DNA of 64,000 nucleotides from Candidatus Liptonbacteria bacterium (GCA_016182095.1 JACOXY010000012.1:25864-89863); one strand, 5' to 3'; counted from the stretch's first letter, positions 7,882 to 52,935 are shown. Translations and numbers: made by a program. The notes: generated by a model from the letters alone, not told the origin.

Positions 7882-7930
7882 CACTAAAAATTAGGTGGAC
7901 AAAAGCGAGATATTATCTCGCTTTTTTCAT

Positions 7931-7960
7931 TTGACAAAATGGTGCTTTTTGTGCTATAAT
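7931..7960 (+). promoter_or_regulatory. sigma70-like promoter (TTGACA-18-TATAAT) driving a long structured leader
   Basis: Consensus hexamers. About 175-nt leader with nested hairpins (gtagctt...aagctac; ccacc...ggtgg) before the strong SD at 8126. Confidence 0.5.
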
Positions 7961-8091
7961 ATACTTAGCAAGCTGTGAGAGGTTCCCCTCTAGCCAGCTT
8001 ATAGAGTAGCAAAAAACGCGCAAAAAGGACCCTGCGTAGCTTCCACCTTCGTTAAAACTTCGGTGGACAAGAAAGCTACGGAGGAACAAGG

Positions 8092-8125
8092 GTCGCCTAC
8101 GCTCTACAGAGCTATGGCGGACCAA
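8092..8125. repeat. 34-bp perfect direct repeat, copy 1 (left flank of high-GC cassette 1)
   Basis: gtcgcctacgctctacagagctatggcggaccaa; identical copy at 8600-8633. Confidence 0.8.
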
Positions 8126-8136
8126 GGGAGGAAAGC

Positions 8137-8523
8137 ATGCGAACGAAGGGGATGTTGATGTTGATCGCGGTTTTGACGGTGCTCCTCTGCCTTACGGCAG
8201 TGGAGACGGTATCGGCCGGCTCGCCGGGCTGGAGCAACAGGAGCGGGGGGTTCGGCATTTCCGGCGGCGTAAGCGGTAGGAGCGTGGCGCCGTACGATGT
8301 CTATCAGCGCGGCAACTACTGCGACAACCCCAACCGCTGCCTACGGTGGCGGAGGGCGGGGAGCTACGTCGGATGCGACGGCTGGTCCGGCTCGCAGTCA
8401 GAGAATGCATACTGGCTGGACTTCGACGTCTGGCGCCAGAGATCAAGCCGCAACAGTACCGGTGCGTTGGTCATGGGTGGCGGAAGAGGGCGCGGCGGCA
8501 GAGCGACCGGCTGGCGTAGGTAG
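8137..8523 (+). CDS. high-GC small secreted Gly/Arg-rich protein (likely foreign)
   Basis: Strong SD gggaggaaagc; signal peptide; GC3-rich codon usage that contrasts with its neighbours. Confidence 0.5.
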   Translation: MRTKGMLMLIAVLTVLLCLTAVETVSAGSPGWSNRSGGFGISGGVSGRSVAPYDVYQRGNYCDNPNRCLRWRRAGSYVGCDGWSGSQSENAYWLDFDVWRQRSSRNSTGALVMGGGRGRGGRATGWRR

Positions 8524-8529
8524 AACGGC

Positions 8530-8576
8530 ATCCAGCCGCAGTTTCCCGGAAACTGCGGCTGGATCCCAACTTTTTA
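8530..8576 (+). terminator. terminator (perfect 15-bp stem)
   Basis: atccagccgcagttt-cccgg-aaactgcggctggat followed by a T run. Confidence 0.6.
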
Positions 8577-8599
8577 TATTTCTAAGTGGCTCGTTCCAA

Positions 8600-8633
8600 G
8601 TCGCCTACGCTCTACAGAGCTATGGCGGACCAA
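8600..8633. repeat. 34-bp perfect direct repeat, copy 2 (right flank of cassette 1)
   Basis: Identical to 8092-8125. Confidence 0.8.
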
Positions 8634-8721
8634 AGGTAGTGGGTCATTTAGAAATGTAAATGTATAGAGAAAGTTGTCATGAAAACTTGCGCAAAAGGGC
8701 AATAGGTGGTATTAAACTTGT

Positions 8722-10908
8722 ATGACAAATTTAATAACAATGGTAAATAGAAAAAATTATAAACTAATAGTTGTGGAGGTTTTTGCTTTGCCTTTATTGT
8801 TAACTGGTTTCGCGGTATTTGCGTCGGGCAATGATCCATCTGTTGATTTGAGTACCAATAGGTCCATAGTTAATCAGGGCGAGTCCTTCACTCTTTCCTG
8901 GACTTCATACAACACTAATTCTTGTATTGCTTCTGGCGGCTGGTCGGGCTCCAAATCTTTGTCTGGTTCGCAAATTATAACACCAGCTTTCAATAGAACT
9001 TATACCATTACCTGCTCTCATTTCGGAGTCAAACAAGCATCGGATAGCGTAACCGTAACCGTACAAACCGAACCACCGCTTTCAGTTGATCTAACCATAT
9101 CAAGCGGCGTTATCCAGCAAGGCAATTCTGCGGTGTTAAGCTGGGCCTCAACCAATGCTGATTTTTGTACGGCTTCTGACGGTTGGTCCGGCAATAAATC
9201 AATTTCCGGCTCCGAAACTGTATCACCATCACGTAATACCGGTTACACCCTAACCTGCTACAATTCACGCGGACAAGTATATGATCATGTTTCCCTTTCG
9301 GTTGTGCAGCAATCACTGCCAACAGTATCTTTGATGGCAAACCCGGAAAATGTCACGAATGGTAATTCATCTTCATTAATCTGGAATACTTCAAACGCCG
9401 ACACCTGTACGGCTTCCGGCGGATGGTCAGGCAATAAATCAACTGCCGGATCACAAACAGTTTTTCTTTCAAATAATACGACTTACACGCTTACCTGCTC
9501 TAATCCCATAGGGCAAGCGTCTGACAGTGTTACTGTATTGGTAAATCAATCGCAAGGAGTTTCTGTTTCTTTAAGCGCAAGTCCATTGAGCATAACCCAT
9601 GGTAACTCTTCAATCTTGAGCTGGAGCTCATCCAACGCAAATACTTGCACCGCTTATAGTGGATGGTCTGGCAGTAAATCTCTTTCTGGTTCACAAACAG
9701 TATTCCCGTCGGTTAATACTACTTACACTTTGACTTGCCAAAATTCTATGGAGCAGACGGATACCGAAAGCGTTACAGTGCTTGTAGATCAGGTTCAAAA
9801 TTTTCCATCGGTGTTTTTAACAGCCAACCCGACGAGTATTAACCAAGGAAATTCGTCATTTTTGGGCTGGAACGCGTCTAATGCCGATTATTGTACCGCC
9901 TCCGGCGGATGGTCCGGCAGTAAATCAATTTCCGGATCGCAGACTATAACGCCATATTTAAACACAACCTATACCCTAACCTGCTACAATTCACGCGGAC
10001 AGACATCTGACAGTGTTACCGTGTTTGTAAATCAATCGCAAGCGACCCCAACGTTAGTTTTTAGCGCTGCGCCAACGGTAATAAATAGAGGTGATACGAG
10101 CTATTTGACTTGGACTTCAAATAATACCACTTCATGCATAGCGGGTGGCGGTTGGTCAGGAACTAAAACGGTTTCCGGATCACAGGCCATAAATCCCTTG
10201 ACACAAACAAATTACGCGCTTACGTGCTTTGGGTCTCAAGGATCAGTAACTGCCGAAGCCCTGGTTGCGGTTCTCTCCCCAAGCTTAGAGCAGTCATCTC
10301 TTGGGGCTTCGTGCGGAATAAGCGATGCCAATGTTTTAACCGGCGAGGACGTTGTTTTCAGCGCTTTCCAGTCGGGCGGGAGAGCTCCTTATACCTATAC
10401 TTGGAGCGGAGCCGCGCAGGGCAGTGGAATTTCAAGAACGATGAGTTTCGGCACGGTTGGCACAAAAACAGCCACCGTGACAATAACTGACGCGGACGGT
10501 AGAATTGCTTCCGGCAGTTGTATTACCAATGTTTCAGAAAGAGCAGTAACTAAACCGGCACAACCTACCGAGGAGGTATTGGGCGAGCAAGCGCCCACCT
10601 GTGAAGTAAAAAAGGTTTTTGCTTGTTCTGATGGGGAAAACTACAATATAGATGAAAATGGAGATGCTTATGATAAGGATGGCAAGCTGATCTATAGCGG
10701 CGCCGACAACAACACCGCCACTACCACACCAGATGACACCGCCGAAAATGAGAGAAATGGCAGGGTGGCATCTCTATTCTTTAATGAAGCAGGCGGTTTA
10801 TCGGGATTGGGCTTTCTGTTAGTGTGGTACTTCTTAATACTTTTAACGATTGGATTTGCTGTTACAATGTATCGGCTAGTCAAGGGTAAATCCAGGGTTA
10901 ACTACTAG
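8722..10908 (+). CDS. large surface protein with six tandem ~88-aa repeats, a PKD-like domain and a C-terminal TM anchor
   Basis: N-terminal TM/signal; repeat unit SxLxWxSxNAxxCTASGGWSGxKSxSGSQTxxPxxNTTYTLTCxN...SDSVTV repeated six times; C-terminal hydrophobic segment plus basic tail. Confidence 0.65.
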   Translation: MTNLITMVNRKNYKLIVVEVFALPLLLTGFAVFASGNDPSVDLSTNRSIVNQGESFTLSWTSYNTNSCIASGGWSGSKSLSGSQIITPAFNRTYTITCSHFGVKQASDSVTVTVQTEPPLSVDLTISSGVIQQGNSAVLSWASTNADFCTASDGWSGNKSISGSETVSPSRNTGYTLTCYNSRGQVYDHVSLSVVQQSLPTVSLMANPENVTNGNSSSLIWNTSNADTCTASGGWSGNKSTAGSQTVFLSNNTTYTLTCSNPIGQASDSVTVLVNQSQGVSVSLSASPLSITHGNSSILSWSSSNANTCTAYSGWSGSKSLSGSQTVFPSVNTTYTLTCQNSMEQTDTESVTVLVDQVQNFPSVFLTANPTSINQGNSSFLGWNASNADYCTASGGWSGSKSISGSQTITPYLNTTYTLTCYNSRGQTSDSVTVFVNQSQATPTLVFSAAPTVINRGDTSYLTWTSNNTTSCIAGGGWSGTKTVSGSQAINPLTQTNYALTCFGSQGSVTAEALVAVLSPSLEQSSLGASCGISDANVLTGEDVVFSAFQSGGRAPYTYTWSGAAQGSGISRTMSFGTVGTKTATVTITDADGRIASGSCITNVSERAVTKPAQPTEEVLGEQAPTCEVKKVFACSDGENYNIDENGDAYDKDGKLIYSGADNNTATTTPDDTAENERNGRVASLFFNEAGGLSGLGFLLVWYFLILLTIGFAVTMYRLVKGKSRVNY

Positions 10909-10912
10909 AAAT

Positions 10913-10932
10913 CCCCCGACTTGGTCGGGGGT
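10913..10932 (+). terminator. putative terminator hairpin
   Basis: cccccgac-ttgg-tcggggg immediately after the stop codon. Confidence 0.4.
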
Positions 10933-11198
10933 TACAATGCGCAGTATATATTTAGGAACAAGCGCAGTGGCTCATGCATTTCCTGCATTTCGGACAGCGA
11001 TGTACATAACAGAAGAAGTATTCCTTTCTGCCGGCCGCTTTGCATGCAAAACACGGCTCGGAGTTGCCGGTGCATTTTTCCAAACGCACTATGCACGCAG
11101 TGGAAGTGATTATCTTTTTTATTATTCCGGCCATTCTAACGCCTCCCTTTTATGAAAACTTGAGCCGTCTGGCTTATTTATACACCTTTTTATTGCTA

Positions 11199-11227
11199 TT
11201 GTCAAGTACAGAATAGCGTGGTATACT
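11199..11227 (+). promoter_or_regulatory. promoter for RNase P RNA (TTGTCA-17-TATACT)
   Basis: Hexamers sit 7 nt upstream of the inferred P1 5' strand. Confidence 0.45.
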
Positions 11228-11234
11228 TTCATCA

Positions 11235-11886
11235 GATTGGTTGTTTAGATAGCTACTGGCCGTCCTACAGACGGCAACAAATGTTATTTGTTAAATGTTG
11301 ATTGTTGCCGCCCGCAGGGCGGCTAGAGGAAAGTCCGAGCACTTAGCCTTGTGTTTCGCTCAAGGGAATTCGAAACTCTAATTTCTAAATTCTAAACAAT
11401 ATTTAAAATTCAAATTTCTAAAACTCTAAGCGAGAGCATTCTTTTATAGATTCTCCCGTTTGGAATTTTGAGTTTGTGCTTTGGAATTTGTTTAGGATTT
11501 CGAATTTAGGATTTAGGATTTTCTCGCGCGGAGCGCGAGGCATGAGTAGCGGGTAACGCCCGTCTGGAGTAATCCTAGAGGTGCGAACAGTGACGTCTCG
11601 CCCGAAAGGCGCGGGAAGGCCCAATCCTAAGCTAGTTGGCCTAATTCCGCATAAGGATAAAAAGGCGGAAGTGAAACGGCTAAATCCTTACTTGAGTGCA
11701 AGACCGTACTCTGGATTCTGGGGGCTGGATGCTGGATGTCGGAGTTGATCCGATTTCTAGCTTCCAGTTTCTGGACTCCGGTTTGTGTCGCTTGAGCCCG
11801 AGAGTAATCGAGGGCCCAGATAAATTGCTATTGCCCCTAAACCCGCGAGGGTCGGGGAACAGAACTCGGCTTATTAACAACCAATC
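11235..11886 (+). ncRNA. rnpB: RNase P RNA (bacterial type A-like) with a large AT-rich insertion
   Basis: P4 strands GAGGAAAGTCCGAGC and ACAGAACTCGGCTTA with compensatory changes. P1 pairs gattggttgtt (11235-11245) with aacaaccaatc (11876-11886). About 150-nt low-complexity insertion at roughly 11370-11520. Confidence 0.8.
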
Positions 11887-12025
11887 TATCCGCCAGAGCT
11901 TGACGCAAAGGTGGACACAAAATCGCCCCCCAAAAAAAGGGCGATTTTGTTTTTTAGTTCCTACCGCGCATACCCTCCACCTTCGCCAAGGCTTCGGAGG
12001 GCAAGCAAACCCTAAACCACATGCC

Positions 12026-12484
12026 CTATTTATTATCCAGCGCCTTATTTACCATTCCGTCAGCTTCTTTATTTTGTTCTCTTCTTACATGAATAAACTT
12101 AACGCTTTTGAAATCAAGCCGCAGGTTCCAAATATCAATAAATAACTCCCGCAGGGCCGGCTCCTCGATTTTGTAGATTCCGTTCATTTGTTTTACCAAA
12201 AGTTCGCTATCGGCGCGAATTTCTATCTCCATTTCTTTAGCTTTCTCTTTGCCGAAAAGCTGCTTGATTTTTTTTAAGGCAAAAATAACCGCAGAGTATT
12301 CAGCGACATTATTAGTTGTATCATGAATACGCTCTCCATATTTCCTCTTTGAACCGCCGAGATTTATTACAACTCCAATAGCGGCAGGCCCGGGATTCCC
12401 GCGAGCACCACCATCAGTATGCACCACTATTTTAGTGTTTGGTGTGCCAAATAGCGCTTCTGGTTGTTTTTTATTTTTTGTCAA
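12026..12484 (-). CDS. rnhA: ribonuclease HI
   Basis: HTDGGARGNPGPAAIG and NNVAEY RNase H motifs. Confidence 0.8.
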   Translation of the reverse strand: MTKNKKQPEALFGTPNTKIVVHTDGGARGNPGPAAIGVVINLGGSKRKYGERIHDTTNNVAEYSAVIFALKKIKQLFGKEKAKEMEIEIRADSELLVKQMNGIYKIEEPALRELFIDIWNLRLDFKSVKFIHVRREQNKEADGMVNKALDNK

Positions 12485-12552
12485 TTTTTATAGAGGGTTT
12501 AGGGCATAGTGTTTAGCTTGCGCACTATACCCTATCAGCTATACCCTACACC

Positions 12553-13380
12553 CTAATTTAGGCGTTTCCAAGGCAATTTTGCGCCCGCTTTAATTTTAAA
12601 CGCCGATGCCCGCCTATGCCCTCCACCGCCAAAATGCTCGGCAAGTTTTGAGACATCGACGGAACCATCTGATCGCAGCGATATTTTTTTAGAATTCTTT
12701 TTTTGGTGCCAGATAATCGCCACGGGCTCCTTGGCGTATATAATGCTCGCAAGCTCATCTGTAAAAACTGGTGAGTTTACCGCGAGCGCCCGCTTGCCGC
12801 GAAAAATAACCAATTCCTTGTTCCGAAGTATTTCATAAATCAGGGCTTTCTGGTACTTTAAGAGAAGCTTGCCATCGGCAAAAAACTTTTTCCTGAAATT
12901 TGCTTTTTCAAATCTTTTTATGAAGGAATCTAAAATCTTTAGGTTATTGGGTAAAAGCGGCCTCGAGACCACAAATGCTTTTGCGTGCGGCATTTTTAGT
13001 TTCCACAAATCGATATCTTCCACATAGCGCAAATAGTGCGGCATGGTTTTACCGGGGTGAAAATATTCCCAGGCCAGCACAGAACCAGAGTGGTGGAGTG
13101 CGTATAGCGGCTTATGCGTTAGGGAAACCGCTTCTTTGTTTGAAATATGGTGGTCAATAGCCGTTACCCGCTTATTCATCGCTATCAACTTTTTAGTGAT
13201 GGCTTTGGGGAAGCAGTAGTCAACCAGGTAAATTTCTTTATTTTTAAGACCCGGGGGTGAGGGCGCTTGATTCACAACTGGAATATAGGTCGCGCTTGCT
13301 CCGAATTTTTTCCATGCCGCCCAAGCCGCGCCCGCTCCATCGCTACAGTCTGCGTGGTACAAAATTACAATGTTTTTCAT
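12553..13380 (-). CDS. DHH/DHHA1 phosphoesterase (NrnA-like nanoRNase/pAp phosphatase)
   Basis: DCSDGAGAA, AIDHH and C-terminal GGGH motifs; start trimmed to MKNIV. Confidence 0.7.
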   Translation of the reverse strand: MKNIVILYHADCSDGAGAAWAAWKKFGASATYIPVVNQAPSPPGLKNKEIYLVDYCFPKAITKKLIAMNKRVTAIDHHISNKEAVSLTHKPLYALHHSGSVLAWEYFHPGKTMPHYLRYVEDIDLWKLKMPHAKAFVVSRPLLPNNLKILDSFIKRFEKANFRKKFFADGKLLLKYQKALIYEILRNKELVIFRGKRALAVNSPVFTDELASIIYAKEPVAIIWHQKKNSKKISLRSDGSVDVSKLAEHFGGGGHRRASAFKIKAGAKLPWKRLN

Positions 13381-13522
13381 GGGGTTTGGGCAAAAGTAAA
13401 AAGTAAATATCAAAAATTAAAATTCTGGTTGTTTTAAAAATTAAATAATTTTTCAAACTTCATCAATTTTGCTTTTTACATTTTGATTTTTAATATTATG
13501 CTACAATCCTATCGACTATACC

Positions 13523-14611
13523 CTACTTCATAAGCGCTTCAATGCCGGGTAATTTTTTTCCGGCCAAAAATTCCAGCATTGCTCCCCCGCCAGTTGAAAC
13601 AAAGCTGATTTTTTCGTACCCCCCTGTTTGTTTTAGCGCAGTTACGGTTTCTCCTCCGCCCACAAGACTGAAAGCATTTTTGTTGGCTGCTATAGCTCTT
13701 GCTATCGCGTAAGTCCCTTTGGCGAACTCTTCTTTTTCAAATAATCCCATAGGCCCGTTCCAAACTATTGTTTTGGCGGTTTTTATGCGCTCCGCAAAAA
13801 TATTTTCTGTTTTATTCCCAATATCCAAAATTTTGTTATCACCCCACCTATAGTCTGCGGGCATCACCAGATTTTTATATTGCAGGAGTTTATCTGTCCC
13901 AGGCGGAGGATTTTTTTCAAAAACAGAATCTTTGACGTCCAGACCCTGAATTGCCGCTAAAGTATTCGCCAACGCGCCGCCAATTAAAAATTTATCGGCC
14001 CTCTTTTTAAAAAACGCGGCGATGGGAAGTTTGTCAGCCATTTTTGCGCCCCCAAGTATCATGATGAGCGGCCTTGCGGCGCTCTTCATGATTTTTGAAA
14101 GATTTTTAATTTCCGCTTCAAGTTCCAGGCCAGCGTATGATGGCAGGAATTTAGTAATAGCCGAAACCGAAGCATCAGCCCTGTGGCAAACAGCGAAAGC
14201 ATCGTTCACATAATAATCACCCAAAGAAGCCAAGTTTTTAGCGAAGGAAATGTTATTTTCTTTTTCCATTGACACAAATCTCAAGTTTTCCATCACGAAT
14301 ATTGACTTCGTATGCGCGTCTTGTATGGCTCTTTTAGCTTCAGAAAAGTTAAAATCTTGAATAAAGTTAACAGGCTTTCCCAATAAATCGCCCAAATTGT
14401 CCGAGTCTTTTTTTAGACTGAACTGCTTCTGAAATCCCAATGGGCGTCCCTTGTGGCTTAGAACAACAAGCTTGCTCGCGTGTTTTAATAAGAATTGAAG
14501 AGTGGGCAGGGCCGCCTTTATTCTCCAGTCGTCCTCGGTATTAAAATCAAGCCGGACTACAGCTGTGCCGCTTAATTTTTTTGGACTTACCTTGCTTAAA
14601 TAGGCAATCAT
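13523..14611 (-). CDS. pgk: phosphoglycerate kinase
   Basis: RLDFN, SHKGRP and C-terminal VSTGGGAMLEF signatures. Confidence 0.85.
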   Translation of the reverse strand: MIAYLSKVSPKKLSGTAVVRLDFNTEDDWRIKAALPTLQFLLKHASKLVVLSHKGRPLGFQKQFSLKKDSDNLGDLLGKPVNFIQDFNFSEAKRAIQDAHTKSIFVMENLRFVSMEKENNISFAKNLASLGDYYVNDAFAVCHRADASVSAITKFLPSYAGLELEAEIKNLSKIMKSAARPLIMILGGAKMADKLPIAAFFKKRADKFLIGGALANTLAAIQGLDVKDSVFEKNPPPGTDKLLQYKNLVMPADYRWGDNKILDIGNKTENIFAERIKTAKTIVWNGPMGLFEKEEFAKGTYAIARAIAANKNAFSLVGGGETVTALKQTGGYEKISFVSTGGGAMLEFLAGKKLPGIEALMK

Positions 14612-14717
14612 GGAGATAATTATAGCATATAAAATTATTGTTATAAACGTTGTATTCGTTAACCGTTCTATGCGTATGCGATTAGAACGTTAGAACGACT
14701 AAAGCGATAGAACTGCT

Positions 14718-16013
14718 TTGAAAAACATAGTTATCCTTGGCGCCGGCTTCGGCGGCTTAAGAGTTGCGCGAGTACTCGCGAAGAAACTCACGAAGGCCGG
14801 GCTAAATGATAAATACCGGCTAATTTTGGTTGACAGAAACCATTACCATACCTTTACGCCGCTTTTGTATGAAGCCGCAACCACCTCAAAAGAAATAGCG
14901 GATATGGTGGAGCTGCGCACTATAACAACTTTTCAGATAAAACAAATTTTAAGCGGTCTCAAAGTTGATTTTATTAACGCCGAAGTAGAGAAAATTGATA
15001 TTATTACGGGAAAAATAAATTTAAAATCCAATAAAGGACAAGAGGTATTGGCTTTTGACCATCTAGTTATAGCTCTTGGCGCCGAAGTCAATACATTTAA
15101 CATTAAAGGCGTGACAGAGCATGCTTTTTATTTAAAAACCTTCTGGGATGCGATGCGGCTAAGAGATAAGATTATTGAAAACGTTGACGATGGCAAAAAG
15201 AATTTAAAAATAATTATCGGGGGGGGCGGTTCAACCGGAGTTGAATTAGCTGCCGAAATTCAGGGCTGGATTTGCGAGCTTAAAGAGGAGTACCCCAAAG
15301 TCAGGGAGTGTGAGGCACAAGTTTCTATTGTTGAGGGCGCGGGAAGTATTTTGAGTTCGCTCCATCAAAAAATCATAAAAAGGGTTGGGGAGCGGCTCGC
15401 GCACCTTGGGGTCAACACTATAACTAACGAATTCATCTCCGAGGTAGATGCAGACAAAATTTATCTGAAAAGCGAGCGAATTTTGCCTTGCGATATCTTT
15501 ATCTGGGCTGGCGGAATTAAAGCCCCAGCAATTTTAAATCAAGCCGAGCTGCAAAAATCAAAGAATAATGCCCTGCTGGTACAGAACAAAATGCAATGCC
15601 TGTCTGCCGCGCCAGATTTAAAGTTAGGCTCTGCAATTTATGGCCTGGGCGACAGTGTCTGCTTTATAAATCCCAAAAACGGAAAACCTATCCCCTGTGT
15701 CGCGCGACCAGCCATAATTCAGGGGGGAATTATAGCGCACAATATTTTTGAAGATATCATGGTACGGGAGGGTTTAAGCGTGAAAGCTTATCACAAAACT
15801 TTTGTGCCAAGGGAGTACCCGTATATAGTCCCTGCGGGCGGCAAATGGGCGGCGGCAAAAATAGGCCCATTTATTTTTTCCGGAATCTTAGGTTGGGTAT
15901 TAAAGGGATTAGTGGAACTTAACTATTTCTTATCAATATTGCCGGTTTGGTACGCGTTTAAAATATGGTTCAAGGGATTTTATATATTCATAAAAAACGA
16001 CCGGCTTGGCTAA
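14718..16013 (+). CDS. FAD-dependent pyridine nucleotide-disulfide oxidoreductase (NDH-2-like)
   Basis: N-terminal IVILGAGFGG Rossmann motif, second GGGSTGVE motif, C-terminal hydrophobic tail. Confidence 0.65.
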   Translation: MKNIVILGAGFGGLRVARVLAKKLTKAGLNDKYRLILVDRNHYHTFTPLLYEAATTSKEIADMVELRTITTFQIKQILSGLKVDFINAEVEKIDIITGKINLKSNKGQEVLAFDHLVIALGAEVNTFNIKGVTEHAFYLKTFWDAMRLRDKIIENVDDGKKNLKIIIGGGGSTGVELAAEIQGWICELKEEYPKVRECEAQVSIVEGAGSILSSLHQKIIKRVGERLAHLGVNTITNEFISEVDADKIYLKSERILPCDIFIWAGGIKAPAILNQAELQKSKNNALLVQNKMQCLSAAPDLKLGSAIYGLGDSVCFINPKNGKPIPCVARPAIIQGGIIAHNIFEDIMVREGLSVKAYHKTFVPREYPYIVPAGGKWAAAKIGPFIFSGILGWVLKGLVELNYFLSILPVWYAFKIWFKGFYIFIKNDRLG

Positions 16014-16047
16014 AGTACAATGCGAAAACCTTTCAAAAACCCTTATT

Positions 16048-16076
16048 TTGCAAGGGGGAGGTTTTTGTGAGCTTGC
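16048..16076. repeat. imperfect direct repeat, copy 1, flanking high-GC cassette 2
   Basis: ttgcaagggggaggtttttgtgagcttgc versus ttgcaaggcaagaaggtttttgagcttg at 16713-16740. Confidence 0.55.
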
Positions 16077-16101
16077 TTTTTTTATGATTCCGTGTTATAA
16101 T
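16074..16101 (+). promoter_or_regulatory. sigma70-like promoter (TTGCTT-16/17-TATAAT) with a ~180-nt leader
   Basis: Hexamers present; leader contains the hairpin cagtttga-gtttt-caaactg before the SD ggaaggagag. Confidence 0.4.
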
Positions 16102-16279
16102 TAAGAAAGTAAATTAAATGTGAATCTCGGCAGCCATTTGGCCAGATAAAATTTAATCGCCCGAACCTTTTGTCTTACAAAAAGTTTTAGGATGAATTTT
16201 ATATCCGGCTAAACTGCTGCTGAGACGGCGGCCAGTTTGAGTTTTCAAACTGCATTCCCGAGACGGGAAGGAGAGAAAG

Positions 16280-16624
16280 ATGAGAATTGCGATCAGCAGA
16301 TCAGTAAGTTCCGCAGAAGAGATGGTGCGCGCAGCTCTTCAACATACCCCACCAGATATGAATCTGGACGGGACGTGGATGGAGAGGAACTATTGGTCCA
16401 AACCTCTGGATTTAGACGGTGACAATGACCGTGGTGTGCGCCTCACCATCTTCGTTTACCCCGGCATTCTGATCAAGGCCGAATGCGCCGTGTATTCGGA
16501 GGGTGGAAAGTATCAGACTGGAGACATAGAGATCGAGCATCGCGCAAGCGGAAAGAGATGGAAGTTCCATTGCTGGCTGAAGAATCGGAACGACAAAAAA
16601 TTCACCGTTTGCGAAATCGAGTAA
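16280..16624 (+). CDS. hypothetical protein, GC-elevated cassette gene
   Basis: 114-aa ORF with a strong SD; GC noticeably above its surroundings; terminator immediately downstream. Confidence 0.5.
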   Translation: MRIAISRSVSSAEEMVRAALQHTPPDMNLDGTWMERNYWSKPLDLDGDNDRGVRLTIFVYPGILIKAECAVYSEGGKYQTGDIEIEHRASGKRWKFHCWLKNRNDKKFTVCEIE

Positions 16625-16641
16625 AGCGGCTTCTCTAAGCC

Positions 16642-16677
16642 ATCCGGGAACGACACCACCGTTCCCGGATCTTTTTA
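16642..16677 (+). terminator. rho-independent terminator
   Basis: atccgggaac-gacaccacc-gttcccggat followed by ttttt. Confidence 0.65.
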
Positions 16678-16712
16678 TCCCCTCAATCTCTCATTATTAA
16701 AAAATCTTTATC

Positions 16713-16740
16713 TTGCAAGGCAAGAAGGTTTTTGAGCTTG
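16713..16740. repeat. imperfect direct repeat, copy 2, flanking cassette 2
   Basis: See 16048-16076. Confidence 0.55.
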
Positions 16741-16787
16741 TAATTTTATTAAAATCGTATTTTTAAATAAATACCTCTATTATTTTT

Positions 16788-28775: not shown

Positions 28776-28857
28776 ATCAAATATTAAATATTAAAAATAA
28801 AATACACATATCAAAAATTAAAATAGAAAATGGTCGCGGAGCGACACCATATTTTTT

Positions 28858-28905
28858 ATTTTTGCCTATAGCCTGTCGGCTCGGCCGTTTAAGGATATTT
28901 GATTT
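28858..28905. repeat. 48-bp intergenic repeat family, copy 1
   Basis: tttttatttttgcctatagcctgtcggctcggccgtttaaggatattt; reverse complement of 49003-49050 with 3 mismatches. Confidence 0.7.
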
Positions 28906-28951
28906 TTTATTTAATTCTAACAAAATTTACCGCAAAAATACAGATACAATT

Positions 28952-43005: not shown

Positions 43006-43024
43006 AACCTAAGAACTGTATCAT

Positions 43025-44263: not shown

Positions 44264-45067
44264 TCAGCTTGAGGTCGCCGTAGAAGTGCCAGTGCCGCCA
44301 TCTCCCCTAGCCGCCTTGAAGTCAGCTTTGGCTTTTTCAAAGGCCGCCTTGAAATCGGCTTGCGCTTTTTCAAAGGCCGCTTTCTTAGCTTCAATAAGCG
44401 GCTTTACTCCGTCTCTAATTTTATCTGCCGCTTTGCGATCAGCTTGGAACTTTTCCCGCGCGGCCTTAAGCGCCGCTTGCAAATTAGTCCTCACAGTAGC
44501 AGGCTTTACGCCGCCTGCGCAATCGGCCCTTGCCTTATCAAGCGCCGCTTTTACAGAGGCCTTAAAAGCACCAACAGCGCTCTTTACAGCGTCGCGTCGC
44601 GCCACTACCGCATTATCTATCCCATCTCTAAACGCATCGAGCGCCGTATTGATTGCCGCTCGGCGGGCTTCTATCGCCACCTTAAGGGCGGAGTGATAGG
44701 CATTTAGCGCCGCGCGCTCGGCTTCGCTTAAGGCTTTTTCCTGAAGCTTCACAAAGTGTTGAGCTAATCGCTCATCATGATTTTTTAGGCGTTCATCGTG
44801 ACGGGCATCGCGCTCATCACGCCTTGTGTCTAACTTAGTTTCTCGCTCATTTTTCCTTTCCGAAATAAGCGCATCTTGGCGAGAGAGATCTTCCTCTATT
44901 TTTTGGAGGCGCGCCTCCAGCGTCTCGCAAAAATTCGCGCCATCTCTTCCGCGATCAGAGGTGGTCGCATTTCTAGTTTGCGCGAAGGAAACAGCAGGTG
45001 TTACTAAACTCAACACGAGAATTGAGTTAATAACTGCCTCCGTTGATTTTTTAAAGATTTTTTTCAT
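44264..45067 (-). CDS. secreted Ala/Lys-rich coiled-coil repeat protein
   Basis: Signal peptide after MKKIFKK; repeated KAAFEKAQADFKAAFEKAKADFKAA-type heptads. Confidence 0.5.
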   Translation of the reverse strand: MKKIFKKSTEAVINSILVLSLVTPAVSFAQTRNATTSDRGRDGANFCETLEARLQKIEEDLSRQDALISERKNERETKLDTRRDERDARHDERLKNHDERLAQHFVKLQEKALSEAERAALNAYHSALKVAIEARRAAINTALDAFRDGIDNAVVARRDAVKSAVGAFKASVKAALDKARADCAGGVKPATVRTNLQAALKAAREKFQADRKAADKIRDGVKPLIEAKKAAFEKAQADFKAAFEKAKADFKAARGDGGTGTSTATSS

Positions 45068-45347
45068 CGTATGTTTTTCCCATGCCATCCAGAGCATCAC
45101 TGTCAGATTGAATAAGATCGGCATCACCATCTTCGCTTGCATACCCTTCCGCCTCAAGAACCGCGTTTTCCAAAACAACCGCGTCTAAATCATCAGCCGA
45201 ATCTACTAATAATTGAGAGGGCTGTCCGGGCGCCTGGCCCTCTTCGGGGGCGATAACCGGAGATTGCTTGAAGTAGAAAAACACCGCGAGAAGAAGCGCT
45301 ATAAGCGCGATTGATAACAAAATTTTCCAGCCAGAATTTGATTCCAT
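45051..45347 (-). CDS. small TM protein with an acidic tail
   Basis: 98-aa ORF with one TM helix and a D/E-rich C-terminus. Confidence 0.4.
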   Translation of the reverse strand: MESNSGWKILLSIALIALLLAVFFYFKQSPVIAPEEGQAPGQPSQLLVDSADDLDAVVLENAVLEAEGYASEDGDADLIQSDSDALDGMGKTYDEKNL

Positions 45348-47462: not shown

Positions 47463-47475
47463 ATCCGTTTAATAT

Positions 47476-47612
47476 AAACCCGCAATGCTTCCTACTCCAA
47501 ATAGGCCCCGCGTAGTCTGCCACGATTCGCGGGCTTTTTTATATCTAAATAAAACCTGTAATGTTTTTTACTCCAAACCGGCCCCGCGTAATCAACGCCG
47601 ATTCGCGGGGAT
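47476..47612. repeat. tandem duplication (two ~77-bp units) of the mpg 3' coding end plus its terminator
   Basis: Both units carry ..tactccaaa..ggccccgcgta.tc..c..cgattcgcggg + T run. They encode VDYAGPVWSKKHYRF and ADYAGPIWSRKHCGF respectively. Confidence 0.65.
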
Positions 47613-48268
47613 TTTTGAATTTTAAACTTTGCCCGAAGTACATCCTGCGTAGTTCGACTGCGCTCACCATAAACTTTGCCGAAGGATTTCCTTTCTTCCA
47701 CCCACAGCTCGCTTTTTTTATCTGCCTTTTTTCCATTAAACCTTTTGTCAATTTTAAAAAATTTGGTAAGTTTCCCCGGGCCCGACATCCGAAGTCCCAA
47801 ATATTGAGGTTCCCTGCTTTTTGACTTCGGATGTCGCCAAGTTGAGCTTTGCTGGCCAATTTTAGGAGATCCGACCTCTGAAACACACCCATTGGGGAAG
47901 ACTGGGGGCGGGTGGTTTCGGGTTTCCGAGGTCGGATCTCGTGGGCGATCAGATATCAAGACGCCACGGATTAAAACCGCCGCCGGATAATCTTTGGGGC
48001 CCGTCACCACATTTAGCATCCAGTGCATGCCATAGGTTAAATAAACATACCACACTCCCGCCTCGCCAAACATCACCGCGTTCCGCGCCGTTTTCCCGCG
48101 ATGCGCGTGAGACGCCTTGTCCTTAAACCCGTCGTATGCTTCAACTTCAGTTATCATCGCCGCAATTTCCTTACCCTTTATCCTGCGCACCAAAAACTTG
48201 CCTAAAAGATTTCTGGCAACAACAACGGTGGACTTTTGAAAATATGGCTTTTTAAGAATTTTTTTCAT
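47492..48268 (-). CDS. mpg: DNA-3-methyladenine glycosylase (Mpg/AAG family) with an in-frame ~60-aa GC-rich insertion
   Basis: N-terminal ARNLLGKFLV...EVEAYDG...VWYVYLTYGMHWMLNVV and C-terminal GPGKL...PRIGVDYAGPVWS. The insert between them corresponds to the hairpin-rich DNA at about 47760-47945. Confidence 0.65.
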   Translation of the reverse strand: MKKILKKPYFQKSTVVVARNLLGKFLVRRIKGKEIAAMITEVEAYDGFKDKASHAHRGKTARNAVMFGEAGVWYVYLTYGMHWMLNVVTGPKDYPAAVLIRGVLISDRPRDPTSETRNHPPPVFPNGCVSEVGSPKIGQQSSTWRHPKSKSREPQYLGLRMSGPGKLTKFFKIDKRFNGKKADKKSELWVEERKSFGKVYGERSRTTQDVLRAKFKIQKSPRIGVDYAGPVWSKKHYRFYLDIKKPANRGRLRGAYLE

Positions 48269-48668: not shown

Positions 48669-48998
48669 TTATATGGCCTCCGCAATTTCTTCCATAATCG
48701 CTTGCGGCAAAGGACTCCCCGGCTTGGTCACTCCGGGATACCGCCACGCGGAAATAATTTTCATTTTCCTTATTACTTGTTTCTTGTTACTTGTTACCTT
48801 TTCTGTCATTACCCATATCTCATGAGGCCTTGTCTTGCTCCCCGCCTGCTTCATATATGCAATCGTATCAGGCGCTATCCCCTCCTCAATACGCTTGGGC
48901 CGTGAAATCACACCACGCACCATCTGCTCGGATAATCTGTAAAAACGCATTTTATATTTGGCGTGATTGGTCCAGAAGTATTGTTGCATATAAATCAA
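48669..48998 (-). CDS. hypothetical protein (possible toxin-like small protein)
   Basis: 109-aa ORF; no confident family assignment. Confidence 0.35.
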   Translation of the reverse strand: MIYMQQYFWTNHAKYKMRFYRLSEQMVRGVISRPKRIEEGIAPDTIAYMKQAGSKTRPHEIWVMTEKVTSNKKQVIRKMKIISAWRYPGVTKPGSPLPQAIMEEIAEAI

Positions 48999-49002
48999 AA
49001 AT

Positions 49003-49050
49003 TAAATATCCTTATACGGCCGAGCCGTCAGGCTTTAGGCAAAAATAAAA
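49003..49050. repeat. 48-bp intergenic repeat family, copy 2 (inverted relative to copy 1)
   Basis: Reverse complement of 28858-28905. Confidence 0.7.
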
Positions 49051-49115
49051 ATTACGGTAGTCCTTCGACAAGCTCAGGAACTATATTCACAACCACCCAG
49101 GATTTGCACTATACC

Positions 49116-49940
49116 CTATACCCCATTGGCTATACCCTCTGTTGCAATCTTAATTATTTTTCCAAATTCCTCCGCACTTAAACTCGCGCCACCAACAAGG
49201 GCTCCATCAATATCCTTCTCGCTTAAAAACAATTCGGCATTGGAAGCTGTCACGGAGCCACCATATAGAATAAGAGGGTTTAGGCTAAAGTCCGATGGGC
49301 TCGCCCGTTTAGGGGTATGGGGTTTAGCCATTAGCAGTTCTTTGATGAAGCGAGCCATATTCGCGGAGTCCTGCGGTTTGTCGGGGACGCCGGTGCCAAT
49401 TGCCCAGATGGGCTCATAAGCAACTATAATAGGGTCTGGGGTTTGGGGTATGGGGTATAGGGTTTGAATATTTTTTAGATCCGCTTCGAGTTGGGATTTA
49501 ACATAATCTTTCGCGGCATTAAGACCTTTATCGCGAACCTCCCTGGGCTCACCAACACACAATATCACTTTTAATCCCGCAGCTTCGCAGGCGATAATTT
49601 TCTTATTTATCATCTCATCTGTCTCATGAAGTATCATCCTCCGTTCCGAATGTCCGATTATAGCGTAAGATACGCCAAGATTTCTTAGCATCTTTGGCGA
49701 TATTTCCCCCGTAAAGGCGCCAGCATCTTCCCAAAAAGCATCCTGCGCTCCAAAATGAATGCCCTCATATTCTTTTTTCAGAGCCCGGTTAATTAATTCT
49801 TCCAGGTGCGTAAAGGGCGGGGCTACCACCACGCGAGCTCCGTATTTTTCAGCAAATTTTTCCGTTGCGTCAAAAAGATCGCGGGCTTCGTCCAAAGTAA
49901 CGGGGTTCATCTTCCAATTGGCAATTAGCAGTTTCTTCAT
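49116..49940 (-). CDS. tpiA: triosephosphate isomerase
   Basis: IANWKMN; AIIGHSERR; GGASL. Confidence 0.85.
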   Translation of the reverse strand: MKKLLIANWKMNPVTLDEARDLFDATEKFAEKYGARVVVAPPFTHLEELINRALKKEYEGIHFGAQDAFWEDAGAFTGEISPKMLRNLGVSYAIIGHSERRMILHETDEMINKKIIACEAAGLKVILCVGEPREVRDKGLNAAKDYVKSQLEADLKNIQTLYPIPQTPDPIIVAYEPIWAIGTGVPDKPQDSANMARFIKELLMAKPHTPKRASPSDFSLNPLILYGGSVTASNAELFLSEKDIDGALVGGASLSAEEFGKIIKIATEGIANGV

Positions 49941-50047
49941 ATTATTTGTAAGGAGTGTGAAATATGAACAAAACTTGATTTATGTTCGCGTTTCACACTC
50001 CAATCATAACAAAAAGCCGCCTCTCTTGCGAGGCGGCGCATTGCAAC

Positions 50048-51268
50048 CTAAATCTTGCTCAAACCATACTCAACGGCCCCGATAATATCTCTGTAACTTT
50101 CGCGCCCGGGCGACACTCTAATCAACTCTTCCGGAATGCCCATTTCAGACCTCTCCTCGGGAGTAAGCGCTCCATGAGTAGTTTTTGCCGGTCGGCACAT
50201 GATAGTCTGCGGAGACCCAAGGCTGACTGCTAATTTTATAAACGTTTCCTTGGCTATAATATTCATAAAATCTTTAGTTTTAGAGCTTTCATGAAGCTCA
50301 AAAGACAGCATGCCGCCAAAACCAAAATCACCATTTGGCGTTCGCATTTGATTCCTAACAACTTCCCGATCAGGGCCACTGGCAAGACCAGGAAAGTAAA
50401 CCATTCTTATCTTGGAATGTTTATATAGAAAATTCGCCAAAATAAACGCATTGGCATTATGCACCTCCATGCGAGCCGCGAAATCGGTTACCCTGCCAGA
50501 AACCAAGCTTGAATCATGAGCCGAAGGAATGGGGCCAAAATTTTTATAAATACGAAGAAGATTTTGGAAATGCTTTGTTTTGGTAAAATCCTCCGAACAA
50601 GTTGCGCACCCCATTAAAACATCGCCCATCCCATTGATATACTTAGTAAGACTATGTACCACAATATCAACTCCGAATTCAAGGGGGCGGAGATTATAAG
50701 GCGTAGCAAAAGTATTATCAACAATCACAATGGAATTATTTAAATTTTCTTTTCTGAAATCGCGGAGATCAATAACGTCGAGGGTTGGATTTGCAACCGG
50801 TTCAATATAAACCGTGGAAGTGTTATTGCTTAGATTTTCCATCGCATCGGCCACCGACTTAATTTTCACGCATCTTGCGCTTCGTCCATACAAAGGCCAC
50901 ATATCACGGTTTAAAAGTTCATATGTACAGCCGTATAAAGTTTTGGAAGAAAGAATTTCTCTAAGAGGCGGCGTCGTCGCCAATAAACAAGAAGCAATTG
51001 CCGCCATCCCAGAAGAAAAAACCAAAGTTTCCTTGCCGCCCTCCATAACCGTTAACTGCTTTTCAAGAGTATCGTGATTGGGATTGTGATGCGGCAAGCG
51101 AGCATAAACTCCGCTTGTGCCATTATGCATTGCATCTTCAAACTCTTCGACGTCATCAAATTCGCTTGTGACAGCGCGAAAATCTGGAAGCTGGTGAGCA
51201 TTGGGCCTGTAGTTCATATCTCGCGCCGCATGATTGGCGCGCGTTGCAAAATCCTTCATTTCGTACAT
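50048..51268 (-). CDS. Cys/Met-metabolism PLP-dependent enzyme (cystathionine gamma-synthase/beta-lyase/methionine gamma-lyase family)
   Basis: VVHSLTKYINGMGD (PLP lysine) and TLVFSSGMAAIA; start trimmed to MYEMKDF, because the upstream extension is hydrophobic and probably untranslated. Confidence 0.7.
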   Translation of the reverse strand: MYEMKDFATRANHAARDMNYRPNAHQLPDFRAVTSEFDDVEEFEDAMHNGTSGVYARLPHHNPNHDTLEKQLTVMEGGKETLVFSSGMAAIASCLLATTPPLREILSSKTLYGCTYELLNRDMWPLYGRSARCVKIKSVADAMENLSNNTSTVYIEPVANPTLDVIDLRDFRKENLNNSIVIVDNTFATPYNLRPLEFGVDIVVHSLTKYINGMGDVLMGCATCSEDFTKTKHFQNLLRIYKNFGPIPSAHDSSLVSGRVTDFAARMEVHNANAFILANFLYKHSKIRMVYFPGLASGPDREVVRNQMRTPNGDFGFGGMLSFELHESSKTKDFMNIIAKETFIKLAVSLGSPQTIMCRPAKTTHGALTPEERSEMGIPEELIRVSPGRESYRDIIGAVEYGLSKI

Positions 51269-51365
51269 AAAACCACGCCTTTTCTGTGAAGTTTCTGAAG
51301 CTATTATATAAACAATTGAGCGAAATATCAAATCAGGCGCGCTATGTGATAAAATTAAAACAATT

Positions 51366-52007
51366 ATGAATACAGCCGACAGAATTAAACTTAAAAAACG
51401 AGCGTTAAATATTGTAAGGAGACTAAAAAGTCTTTTCCCGCATGCCAAAATGACGCTAAAGTACGGCAATAATTGGGAACTTTTGGTCGCGGTTATTTTA
51501 TCGGCTCAATGCACCGATAAAAAAGTGAACGAGGTAACTGCGAAACTTTTCAGCAAATATAGGTCACTGAATGATTATGCAAAAGCCAACCCACAAGAAT
51601 TTGAGCGCGACATTTACTCAACCGGATTTTACCGCGTAAAGGCAAAAAACATACTGGCTGCGGCAAAAATCGTAAAAAATAAATTCGGCGGCAAATTACC
51701 TAGCACAATGGAAGAAATGCTAACGATTCCCGGAGTCGCGCGGAAAACCGCGAATGTCGTATTGGGTAATGCCTATGGTGTAGTTCAAGGAATTGCCGTT
51801 GATACGCACGTCCGACGCCTCACCCGCCTTTGGGGCTTAACGAAACATAGTGATCCTATTAAAATTGAAAGCGATTTAATGAAAATTATTTCTAAAAAAG
51901 ATTGGTTTAAATTTACTTATTTGGTTATTGATTATGGGAGAAAATACTGTACGGCGAGAGTGAAGGATCATGGCAATTGTCCACTCGCAAAGTTTGAGAC
52001 TAAATAA
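51366..52007 (+). CDS. nth: endonuclease III family DNA glycosylase (HhH-GPD)
   Basis: HhH LTIPGVARKTANVVL and catalytic region; only two C-terminal Cys (CTARVKDHGNC), so possibly no full 4Fe-4S loop. Confidence 0.7.
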   Translation: MNTADRIKLKKRALNIVRRLKSLFPHAKMTLKYGNNWELLVAVILSAQCTDKKVNEVTAKLFSKYRSLNDYAKANPQEFERDIYSTGFYRVKAKNILAAAKIVKNKFGGKLPSTMEEMLTIPGVARKTANVVLGNAYGVVQGIAVDTHVRRLTRLWGLTKHSDPIKIESDLMKIISKKDWFKFTYLVIDYGRKYCTARVKDHGNCPLAKFETK

Positions 52008-52051
52008 AACAAAACCCCAAGGCGTACTGGCTTTGGGGTTCACTGGGCTCA

Positions 52052-52324
52052 CTAATTACAAATTCCGCAATCTCTGTGCACTTCCAGACCGATAGCTTCA
52101 TAATCAATCGGAGCAAATCCTCGCAATTTACGGTGCCAATCATTCAAAACCACATATGTGGCAACCAGAAAGAGCAGTGGATTTACGATAAAGCTAACCC
52201 AAATAAAGGTGACGCAGAAAAGTATTTCTGAATTTACAACATCGCTCCAGAACACAGCCAAAAGGCCATAAGTTAGTAAGGAAAGAACAATGAAGCCCTC
52301 GAAGAACCGATCCCGATGTATCAT
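52052..52324 (-). CDS. small membrane protein
   Basis: Three hydrophobic helices; start trimmed to MIHRDRFF. Confidence 0.35.
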   Translation of the reverse strand: MIHRDRFFEGFIVLSLLTYGLLAVFWSDVVNSEILFCVTFIWVSFIVNPLLFLVATYVVLNDWHRKLRGFAPIDYEAIGLEVHRDCGICN

Positions 52325-52447
52325 TTTTCTTATTCCATTCTCTGGTTGCAAACTACGGTAAGTGTAGCACTTAGAAATTATTGCTGTCAATATAGAAAGG
52401 GCCCGAGGAAAATTCCCCGGGCCTCGAGTTCTGACGGCCTGCTGATT

Positions 52448-52768
52448 TCAGACAGCAGGCAGGTTCACGAGCTTCGCGCGGAGAGCGCGCAGACGTCTCC
52501 GGCCAAGCCAGAGAGCGTCCGAAACGCTCTTCAGCAGATCCCGCAGTCCGTCCGGAGTCTCGGGACACACTGCCCCAGCATCGTACCCGGCCTCCGCGGC
52601 CAGGCGATCGAAGAGCTCGCGCGCCTTGATGTTGCCAACCACCAAGGGATTGAACCGTGGATCCCGCTCGGCCTGCACCAGAAACCCGTACAGAGCCGCC
52701 GCCGGATCGCGCATCTGGCTCCCGATCTCCGTCTGGATGTCCAGACGCCTCTTCTCGTTATACTTCAT
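52448..52768 (-). CDS. high-GC hypothetical protein (cassette 3, likely foreign)
   Basis: Strong SD gaggaggaaagg before the ATG; GC3-rich codons; its own TTGACA-17-TATAAT promoter and a ~110-nt hairpin-containing leader. Confidence 0.5.
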   Translation of the reverse strand: MKYNEKRRLDIQTEIGSQMRDPAAALYGFLVQAERDPRFNPLVVGNIKARELFDRLAAEAGYDAGAVCPETPDGLRDLLKSVSDALWLGRRRLRALRAKLVNLPAV

Positions 52769-52875
52769 GCCTTTCCTCCTCGCCCGTCCTAAACCAGTTT
52801 TACTGGTTGGATTAGGGCTGTTTTTTGGCTAAGTAGCACCATGCTACCTAGCATCCCAACCAGCATCCTAATTGT

Positions 52876-52904
52876 CATTATATTATAAAATTTTCATTTT
52901 GTCA
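52876..52904 (-). promoter_or_regulatory. sigma70-like promoter (TTGACA-17-TATAAT) for the high-GC gene 52448..52768
   Basis: Reverse complement reads ttgaca-aaatgaaaattttataa-tataat. Confidence 0.5.
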
Positions 52905-52907
52905 AGC

Positions 52908-52935
52908 GCAAAAAAACCAGGCTATTTCCTGGTTT
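52908..52935 (-). terminator. rho-independent terminator after the higA-like gene
   Basis: Minus strand: aaaaccagg-aaatag-cctggttttttt. Confidence 0.55.

Follow-up and report, generated by a model that had tools for sequence, protein, structure and literature searches.

Three cassettes with classical expression signals

The window analysed here is a 64-kb stretch (64,000 nucleotides (nt); JACOXY010000012.1:25864-89863) of a groundwater Candidatus Liptonbacteria chromosome, a lineage within the Patescibacteria/Parcubacteria group of the candidate phyla radiation (CPR). It has a GC content of 43.3% and carries genes for Ddl, PGK, TIM, CTP synthase, DnaX, a release factor, FtsEX, Nth and other housekeeping proteins. 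Three loci in it, which we denote cassettes A, B and C (Table 1), share one layout: a sigma-70-type promoter is followed by a leader of 100-180 nt, hairpins beside a strong Shine-Dalgarno sequence (SD), an open reading frame (ORF) of 106-128 amino acids (aa), and a terminator-like hairpin directly after the ORF. An initial annotation had described three GC-rich cassettes of this kind and interpreted them either as inserts from a common high-GC source or as an undescribed class of leader-regulated small genes. It gave no coordinates for the third cassette, and B was the only locus in 7921-52910 that fitted a small ORF behind a 110-180-nt leader. Three other candidates for the third cassette were rejected: 44264-45066 is an Ala-rich secreted coiled-coil gene that has no leader because its first bases lie within the 3' end of the upstream gene (45051-45347), 11520-11640 belongs to the RNase P RNA, and 47900-48140 is internal to a DNA-glycosylase-like gene that was recognised by eye.

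The common layout held for all three loci, but the unusual composition ascribed to them did not extend fully to B. A sliding GC scan and per-ORF statistics were used for the comparison with the 67 other ORFs of the window, whose GC content at third codon positions (GC3) was 0.437 ± 0.054. Against this background, ORFs A and C were strong outliers in GC3 (z=7.0 and z=5.9, respectively), whereas ORF B was a mild one (z=2.9) and did not exceed two ordinary genes, 795-1571 and 44264-45066.

Consensus promoters had also been claimed for all three cassettes and were found at A and C. Perfect TTGACA-N17/18-TATAAT sites occur three times in 64 kb, compared with 0.04 expected; two of them belong to A and C, and the third is the promoter of the helix-turn-helix (HTH) gene adjoining C. 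The promoters of A and C begin with the same 11 nt, TTGACAAAATG. The B promoter has a perfect extended -10 element (TGtTATAAT), but its -35 element matches at only 3/6 positions, and it is thus not a consensus promoter.

Leader length is ~170 nt in A, 172 nt in B, and 102-108 nt in C, and the hairpins of each leader end 0-8 nt before the SD. When the SDs were ranked by the energy of their duplex with the anti-SD among 70 genes, C was first, A second, and B sixth, and the spacing from SD to start codon was 4-6 nt in all three. Compared with shuffled sequences, the leaders had fold z-scores of -1.8 (A), -4.1 (B), and about -3 to -3.6 (C).

The ordinary expression style of this genome is different. 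The median SD/anti-SD duplex energy of the 70 ORFs taken as genes was -0.1 kcal/mol, i.e., no SD, and in many resident genes the best -10 box (TATAAT-like) falls within ~10 nt of the start codon. These two features suggest that leaderless or near-leaderless mRNAs and SD-independent initiation are widespread among resident genes. A strong SD was found in just ~8 genes of the window, including both neighbours of cassette A (6857-7489 and 7624-7881). The cassettes thus stand out against resident genes that mostly lack an SD and whose leaders are short or missing, and what had been read as a shared design of A, B and C is the ordinary bacterial expression design, which is uncommon in this genome.

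All three loci were recovered in independent Logan assemblies. From several samples, C was found in six contigs at 100% identity and B in four contigs, and the left junction of A was crossed by one contig, indicating that the loci are not chimeras or assembly artefacts.

Table 1. Coordinates of cassettes A, B and C and their elements in the window.
Feature	Position	Strand	Remark
Cassette A	7931-8633	+	promoter, leader, SD, ORF, terminator, repeats
A promoter, TTGACA-N18-TATAAT with TG extension	7931-7960	+	exact consensus, 12/12 in promoter scan
A leader, ~170 nt	7967-8136	+	three hairpins, the last being repeat copy 1; fold z=-1.8; start from -10 box
A direct repeat (34 nt), copy 1, hairpin-forming	8092-8125	+	exact; -12.8 kcal/mol, z=-2.6
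A SD, GGGAGG	8126-8131	+	begins right after repeat copy 1
ORF A, 128 aa	8137-8523	+	Gly/Ser/Arg-rich, signal-peptide-like N-terminus, ORFan; GC 0.65, GC3 0.81
A terminator-like hairpin	8527-8567	+	16-bp main stem and 2 outer pairs, then T-run; -32.3 kcal/mol, z=-8.3
A direct repeat (34 nt), copy 2	8600-8633	+	~90 nt upstream of 8722-10908
Cassette B	16032-16747	+	promoter, leader, SD, ORF, terminator, repeats
B imperfect direct repeat (51 nt), upstream copy	16032-16082	+	contains terminator-like hairpin 16040-16056
B promoter	16073-16101	+	weak -35 TTGCTT, extended -10 TGtTATAAT; below promoter-scan threshold
B conserved structured leader	16116-16282	+	covariance model R1, 90.5 bits (one of the 9 sequences used to build R1); fold z=-4.1
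B leader P1	16126-16134 paired with 16216-24	+	long lineage-specific extension in the window
B leader alternative hairpin	16216-16232	+	covariation/pairing analysis
B leader P2	16233-16252	+	RNAalifold alignment structure
B leader P3	16255-16269	+	RNAalifold alignment structure
B SD	16270-16275	+	directly 3' of P3
ORF B, 114 aa, HYT12_02685	16280-16624	+	GC 0.50, GC3 0.59
B intrinsic terminator	16642-16670	+	11-bp stem, then T-run; terminator scan
B imperfect direct repeat (51 nt), downstream copy	16697-16747	+	contains terminator-like hairpin 16711-16725
Cassette C	52400-52905	-	promoter, leader, SD, ORF, terminator
C promoter, TTGACA-N17-TATAAT	52877-52905	-	exact consensus
C leader, ~102 nt	52769-52870	-	folds; no Rfam match
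C leader hairpin 1, apical GCAUGGUGC	52828-52852	-	apical sequence common to sister-genome counterpart
C leader hairpin 2	52782-52818	-	ends at SD
C SD, GAGGAGG	52775-52781	-	strongest SD duplex of 70 genes
ORF C, 106 aa, HYT12_02910	52448-52768	-	predicted all-helical; GC 0.64, GC3 0.76
C terminator-like hairpin	52400-52423	-	10-bp stem; -20.9 kcal/mol
HigA-like HTH gene (52922-53221) and its own consensus promoter (53235-53264)	52922-53264	-	phrog_1381, E=6e-16

The structured leader and gene family of cassette B

An alignable leader was present in all nine aligned B loci; the divergent locus L014 was excluded from this alignment and was not matched by R1, the covariance model of the B leader. 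Helices P1, P2, and P3 were predicted from the alignment by RNAalifold, giving 32 leader pairs with 95% of cells paired. Compensatory changes on both sides occurred in 9 pairs; column shuffles gave 3.0 ± 1.4 such pairs (0/500), and slid controls gave 1-6. The long P1 extension in the window accounts for the leader length of 172 nt. An alternative hairpin, GCUGCC-GAGAC-GGUAGC, uses the 3' strand of P1 and is 98% paired, and it is kept in L017 despite the lack of P1 in that locus. This hairpin is similar to P3 (CCUG-AGA-CAGG), the helix that adjoins the SD or extends into it. The mean identity of the leader (0.73) was higher than that of ORF codon positions 1+2 (0.68) and of position 3 (0.50).

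In 117.6 kb searched, R1 matched only leaders of the B family. No B leader match was found among the 4227 families of Rfam 15, and the B-leader pattern was not found in IMG/VR. As judged by comparative sequence analysis, the B leader is thus a conserved, covarying, and uncatalogued predicted structured RNA upstream of a small-gene family. It may govern translation through its two look-alike hairpins with GAGAC/AGA loops, one of which would abut or overlap the SD, while the other would be in competition with the long stem of P1. Access of the ribosome would then be gated by a protein or ligand bound there, and the B product itself is possibly the effector.

The A, B and C proteins were concatenated as one query and compared by full HMMER with 1.84 billion representative proteins, which yielded homologs of ORF B in four clusters, with E-values down to 1e-12. 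The family alignment has 19 invariant columns, showing that B belongs to a genuine protein family, whose members are 114-130 aa in length. The relatives from named genomes all belong to metagenome-assembled genomes (MAGs) of the Parcubacteria group (Parcubacteria, Kaiserbacteria, and Staskawiczbacteria; three genomes), and the others lie on metagenome contigs. Genomic contexts differ among members, including FtsZ/NrdR, DnaB/CysRS, and positions beside tRNA-Ser or tRNA-Arg. Three B-family genes are located at most ~350 nt downstream of a tRNA gene (L008, L021, and L014, the last with a cut tRNA 3' end), and only L020 and L022 share a conserved partner gene. The GC content of the B gene holds at 0.45-0.57 while the surrounding loci span 0.39-0.57. 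A TTGACA promoter was present in most of the nine aligned loci, and it is the window's own -35 that is weak. As sampled here, B represents a Parcubacteria-restricted family that occupies differing sites in each genome and brings a predicted strong promoter and a conserved leader each time.

The cassette is flanked outside its promoter by the two copies of an imperfect 51-nt direct repeat, each holding one terminator-like hairpin. The two copies are identical at 35/51 positions, while the maximum in shuffled sequences was 31 and 0/300 shuffles reached 35. A GAGCTTG motif is common to the B repeat region and to the 5' edge of the B cassettes in L008 and L023. The AlphaFold model of the B protein (predicted local distance difference test, 69) has a helix on a six-stranded sheet; no informative structural neighbour of the model was found, and a profile search against PDB gave nothing.

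One B homolog lies in a distinctive setting. On L008 (1-10240), it is located ~350 nt downstream of tRNA-Ser in a mosaic island with GC of 0.45-0.61, beside a ddl gene of 39% GC. The island also holds ParE/ribbon-helix-helix toxin-antitoxin genes, methyltransferases, a T2SSE ATPase, and type IV secretion system (T4SS)-pilin genes.

Cassette C and its HTH neighbour

Two proteins homologous to ORF C were found in the same HMMER search (E=2e-9 and 3e-4), making a family of three known members. The counterpart in a sister genome, P0005, lies in the same gene order, FtsE-FtsX-HTH-C...Nth-Cys/Met enzyme. Between the window and the sister genome, the flanking proteins are 77-96% identical, while the HTH proteins share 44% and the C proteins 43%. 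The GC content of P0005 is 0.60 compared with ~0.43 in its flanks, and that of the third member, L024, is 0.58; all three members thus have a GC of 0.58-0.64 beside flanks of 0.41-0.46. P0005 likewise combines a strong SD with a consensus promoter; its leader, however, measures only ~45 nt, retains one hairpin, and lacks most of the leader structure seen in the window. A syntenic GC-rich counterpart with such a short leader indicates that C is neither a recent import nor under the control of a conserved long leader. No direct repeats were found at C.

The HTH neighbour belongs to phrog_1381, annotated as 'plasmid antitoxin with HTH domain'. The HTH gene and C each have a predicted promoter of their own, with a terminator in between, and only C is GC-rich. 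Judged from the syntenic pair of genomes, C is the second gene of a fast-diverging pair with this HigA-like HTH gene, in a fixed slot between ftsEX and nth, and the HTH protein may repress the consensus promoter of C. C had no Pfam, PHROGs, or PADLOC match and could thus be placed in no toxin or defence family. A profile search against PDB gave a weak uL29-like match (E=1e-3), which probably reflects coiled-coil composition. The mRNA of ORF C was more stable than shuffled sequences (z=-3.4). We considered mRNA structure as a general cause of the high GC of the cassettes and rejected it, since only the ORF of C exceeded its shuffles.

An inverted repeat of 120-130 nt (53335-53454 and 62259-62387, 92-97% complementary) begins near this locus. 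It spans a segment of ~9 kb from just upstream of the HTH/C pair past ftsEX, prfB, and tRNA-Thr to a redoxin gene, and the 5' end of gene 61651-62328 lies in one arm. The repeat could serve as a substrate for inversion, or it could stem from duplication of a gene start.

Cassette A between exact direct repeats

The SD, ORF, and terminator of A are bracketed by exact copies of a 34-nt repeat, GTCGCCTACGCTCTACAGAGCTATGGCGGACCAA, the first of which lies inside the leader. Zero such repeats are expected by chance. The 34-mer has only these two copies in the window and none in IMG/VR. Downstream of A is a gene for a 728-aa surface protein (8722-10908). Loss of one repeat copy together with the insert would join the consensus promoter and a leader of ~160 nt to this gene, and A therefore sits inside the probable 5' untranslated region (UTR) of the gene at 8722. 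We infer that A may encode a small secreted protein and have become fixed recently within the 5' UTR of the large surface-protein gene, and that one recombination between the exact repeats would excise it cleanly. For empty-site variants, the Logan contigs merely break at the 34-nt repeat and are uninformative.

ORF A had no homolog among the 1.84 billion representative proteins. A word-indexed search of 5.8 billion protein clusters returned self-hits only for ORFs A, B and C, and A and B, like C, had no Pfam, PHROGs, or PADLOC match. The mRNA structure of ORF A was unremarkable (fold z=-0.4). The stretch C-DGWSGSQS in ORF A (8380-8400) resembles GGWSGSKS, which recurs in each Ig-like repeat of the 728-aa protein. 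A relationship between the two proteins through this GWSGS(Q/K)S motif was rejected, as the BLASTP match (E=0.11) was taken as chance.

Upstream of the cassette, Logan contig L001 (628-667, SRR12113424) contains ~40 extra bases relative to the window at ~7503-7509, near the 5' end of 6857-7489. This difference is an indel polymorphism.

Relationship and origin of the cassettes

The three proteins are mutually unrelated (pairwise E>0.6), and a MAFFT alignment of the three leaders found only promoter elements in common. No leader corresponded to a known riboswitch, as the initial annotation had stated: a gathering-threshold scan of the window with Rfam 15 returned 3 tRNAs only, and E-value scans of 7850-16750 and 52300-53500 gave sraA, Srn266, and FasX as the best matches at E=1.7-2.3, far below gathering. 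The three proteins had no relatives in IMG/VR or among PLSDB plasmids, BLAST of A and C against plasmids returned nothing beyond chance matches of 40-50 nt, and nothing relevant to these cassettes or families was found in the literature. As a set, the cassettes thus have neither a conserved leader structure nor related products, and the proposed class of leader-regulated small genes is reduced to B alone, with its covarying leader.

We consider it probable that A, B and C are three unrelated, self-contained accessory gene units with classical signals, with no homology and no common regulator. Each unit, placed between housekeeping genes, would combine a promoter of its own with an SD-bearing 5' UTR, a small ORF, and a terminator, and the resemblance among the units would be due to classical bacterial signals that most resident genes lack. 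Import of all three from one high-GC donor, for example a host, by one mechanism that leaves direct repeats would explain the near-equal composition of A and C (GC 0.64-0.65, GC3 0.76-0.81), the identical 11 nt with which their promoters begin, and the presence of an exact repeat around A and an imperfect one around B. A common import of this kind is very unlikely and largely refuted. Among the 1.84 billion representatives, A had no homolog and those recovered for B and C came from CPR-type contexts only, the relatives of B in named genomes belong to the Parcubacteria group, C is syntenic in the sister genome, and B has merely 50% GC. Moreover, the repeats of A and B are unlike in sequence and are placed differently with respect to the promoter, C has none, and no integrase, transposase, or recombinase was found among the ~30 of ~70 window ORFs covered by the Pfam scan. 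The TTGACAAAATG start also occurs in the B-family promoter of L017, from another genome, and may therefore simply be a local form of strong promoter. Of all the explanations considered, we give least credence to the three leaders being variants of a single riboswitch-like or attenuator element. All of them are 100-180 nt long and have hairpins directly preceding a strong SD; those of B and C fold more stably than their shuffles (z=-4.1 and -3.6, respectively), and none is in Rfam. However, they have no common sequence, R1 finds nothing at A or C, and a three-family structural alignment with significant covariation was not found. The ~45-nt leader of the C counterpart retains one hairpin only, the A leader does not exceed its shuffles, and the SD-proximal hairpin of A is a copy of the flanking repeat.

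An integron-like mobility of the cassettes, in which site-specific recombination acts on hairpin repeats with no integrase close by, is unlikely, though less so than a common import. In that case, A would be a promoterless ORF with a hairpin site downstream of a resident promoter, and B would be bounded by terminator-like hairpin sites. The exact hairpin repeat that brackets the SD, ORF, and terminator of A downstream of a consensus promoter agrees with this arrangement, as do the hairpin in each B repeat copy, the GAGCTTG motif at the 5' edge of the L008 and L023 cassettes, and the differing sites of B-family genes, three of them within ~350 nt downstream of a tRNA. Against it, the A repeat is 34 nt and, as read from its sequence, has no GTTRRRY core; neither IntI nor another recombinase was seen among the ~30 ORFs scanned; the cassette is single, with no array; the 34-mer is absent from IMG/VR and from the rest of the window; and C has no repeats. 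A highly improbable explanation is that the GC-rich stretches are non-coding, being structured RNAs, chance ORFs, or assembly chimeras. GC-rich DNA opens several frames, with 4-5 overlapping ORFs at A and C, A has no homolog, and the C ORF folds better than its shuffles. However, B and C are conserved as proteins with invariant residues, GC3 peaks in the annotated frames, each of the three has an SD spaced at 4-6 nt and a stop codon directly followed by a terminator, A has a signal-peptide-like N-terminus and an ORF that folds no better than shuffles, and the junctions were crossed in independent assemblies from several samples. A further and rather doubtful possibility is that the B leader (~110-170 nt) is a CPR-specific riboswitch or a protein-run translational switch, and that A, B and C belong to a pool of high-GC, SD-led CPR cassettes moving among SD-poor genomes of the leaderless type via hairpin-repeat recombination.

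Several points weigh against the interpretation of A, B and C as three unrelated accessory units. Transcription starts, and hence leader lengths, were deduced from -10 boxes. The coding status of A, which lacks a homolog, rests on SD spacing, the signal-peptide-like N-terminus, GC3 periodicity, and the terminator. The covariation in the B leader comes from 9 related sequences, all of which were used in model building. Vertical inheritance of C leaves it unexplained why its GC3 has not decayed toward the genome mean; GC3 could have been kept by repeated replacement at the slot or by selection on the mRNA. A recombinase could have been missed, as the Pfam scan covered less than half of the ORFs. 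Lastly, no donor sequence was found for any cassette, and a donor among high-GC CPR lineages is putative.

Across the homologs compared, high GC is a family trait of B and C, and it is therefore not evidence of recent import from a non-CPR host. The MAGs named Liptonbacteria at NCBI carry GC values from ~35 to 60%, and this span makes exchange among CPR lineages the most economical source of the cassettes, in our view, compared with import from a non-CPR host.

Other features of the window

An RNase P RNA of bacterial class A was located at 11243-11890 (+), with 50.3 bits against an Rfam gathering score of 100 (E=2e-13). It contains an AT-rich hairpin insertion of ~180 nt (~11354-11533) after the GAGGAAAGUCCG motif, and more insertions elsewhere. 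A family of 36-nt palindromes has seven intergenic copies, at 1608, 1970, 24808, 25388, 32566, 42693, and 43034, with the consensus AAACATTCTAACATTCTNNAGAATGTTAGAATGTTT. Two copies are 94-100% identical to the reference and the others 67-81%; they could be operator-like or repetitive extragenic palindromic (REP)-like elements. A terminator-like element of 74 nt is duplicated in tandem (47476-47549 and 47552-47625, 76% identical) between convergent genes, and an 83-nt inverted repeat (28846-28928 and 48976-49058, 84% complementary) has its arms 20 kb apart. The ORF at 47492-48268, named DNA-glycosylase-like by eye from its translation, holds two in-frame, GC-rich perfect hairpins at 47790-47960 (-) with arms GAGATCCGACCTC and GACATCCGAAGTC. 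These hairpins resemble small palindromic elements inserted into coding sequence.

Implications and comparison with known systems

CPR bacteria are uncultivated; very little has been established about how they regulate their genes. The window suggests that two expression styles exist in one genome, with SD-less resident genes on one side and a few accessory genes with a sigma-70 promoter, a structured leader, and a strong SD on the other. The combination of promoter, long leader, and strong SD may thus serve as a simple signature by which accessory genes could be recognised across CPR genomes. In the B leader we see a candidate cis-regulatory RNA that is confined to Parcubacteria and tied to a small protein to which the searches assigned no function. 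C illustrates that a strongly GC-skewed small gene can keep a fixed slot in sister genomes while diverging to 43% identity, and atypical composition should accordingly not be taken as a sign of recent transfer from host to symbiont.

Morons are autonomous promoter-ORF-terminator units of atypical composition known from lambdoid prophages. The cassettes resemble them in being self-sufficient units between unrelated genes, with their own promoter and terminator and a deviating composition. However, the cassettes lie outside any prophage, have housekeeping neighbours and no relatives in IMG/VR or PHROGs, and B and C are confined to CPR.

The leader of B can be compared with cis-regulatory 5' leaders that control access to the ribosome-binding site, for example those of ribosomal-protein genes, the coat-protein operator hairpin of phage MS2, and translational riboswitches. 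Like these, it is predicted to have several covarying helices, with one hairpin at the SD and two mutually exclusive helices. It differs in that its presumed target is the gene of a 114-130-aa protein without an assigned function and not a metabolic or ribosomal gene, and in that its motif comes from ~9 loci and has no Rfam match.

Cassette A is reminiscent of integron cassettes, since a hairpin-forming repeat brackets its SD, ORF, and terminator, and the unit is preceded by a strong resident-looking promoter and followed by another gene. In contrast to attC sites of ~55-140 nt, its repeat is 34 nt without GTTRRRY; no integrase was found among the ~30 scanned ORFs, A has its own terminator, and it forms no array.

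Mobile toxin-antitoxin or defence modules often diverge far faster than flanking genes. C and its neighbour recall the HigA-type (type II) toxin-antitoxin modules, as the neighbour matches phrog_1381 and the HTH+C pair diverges far faster than its flanks. However, the pair includes no HigB-like gene, C matches neither toxin nor defence families, each gene has its own promoter, and only C is GC-rich.

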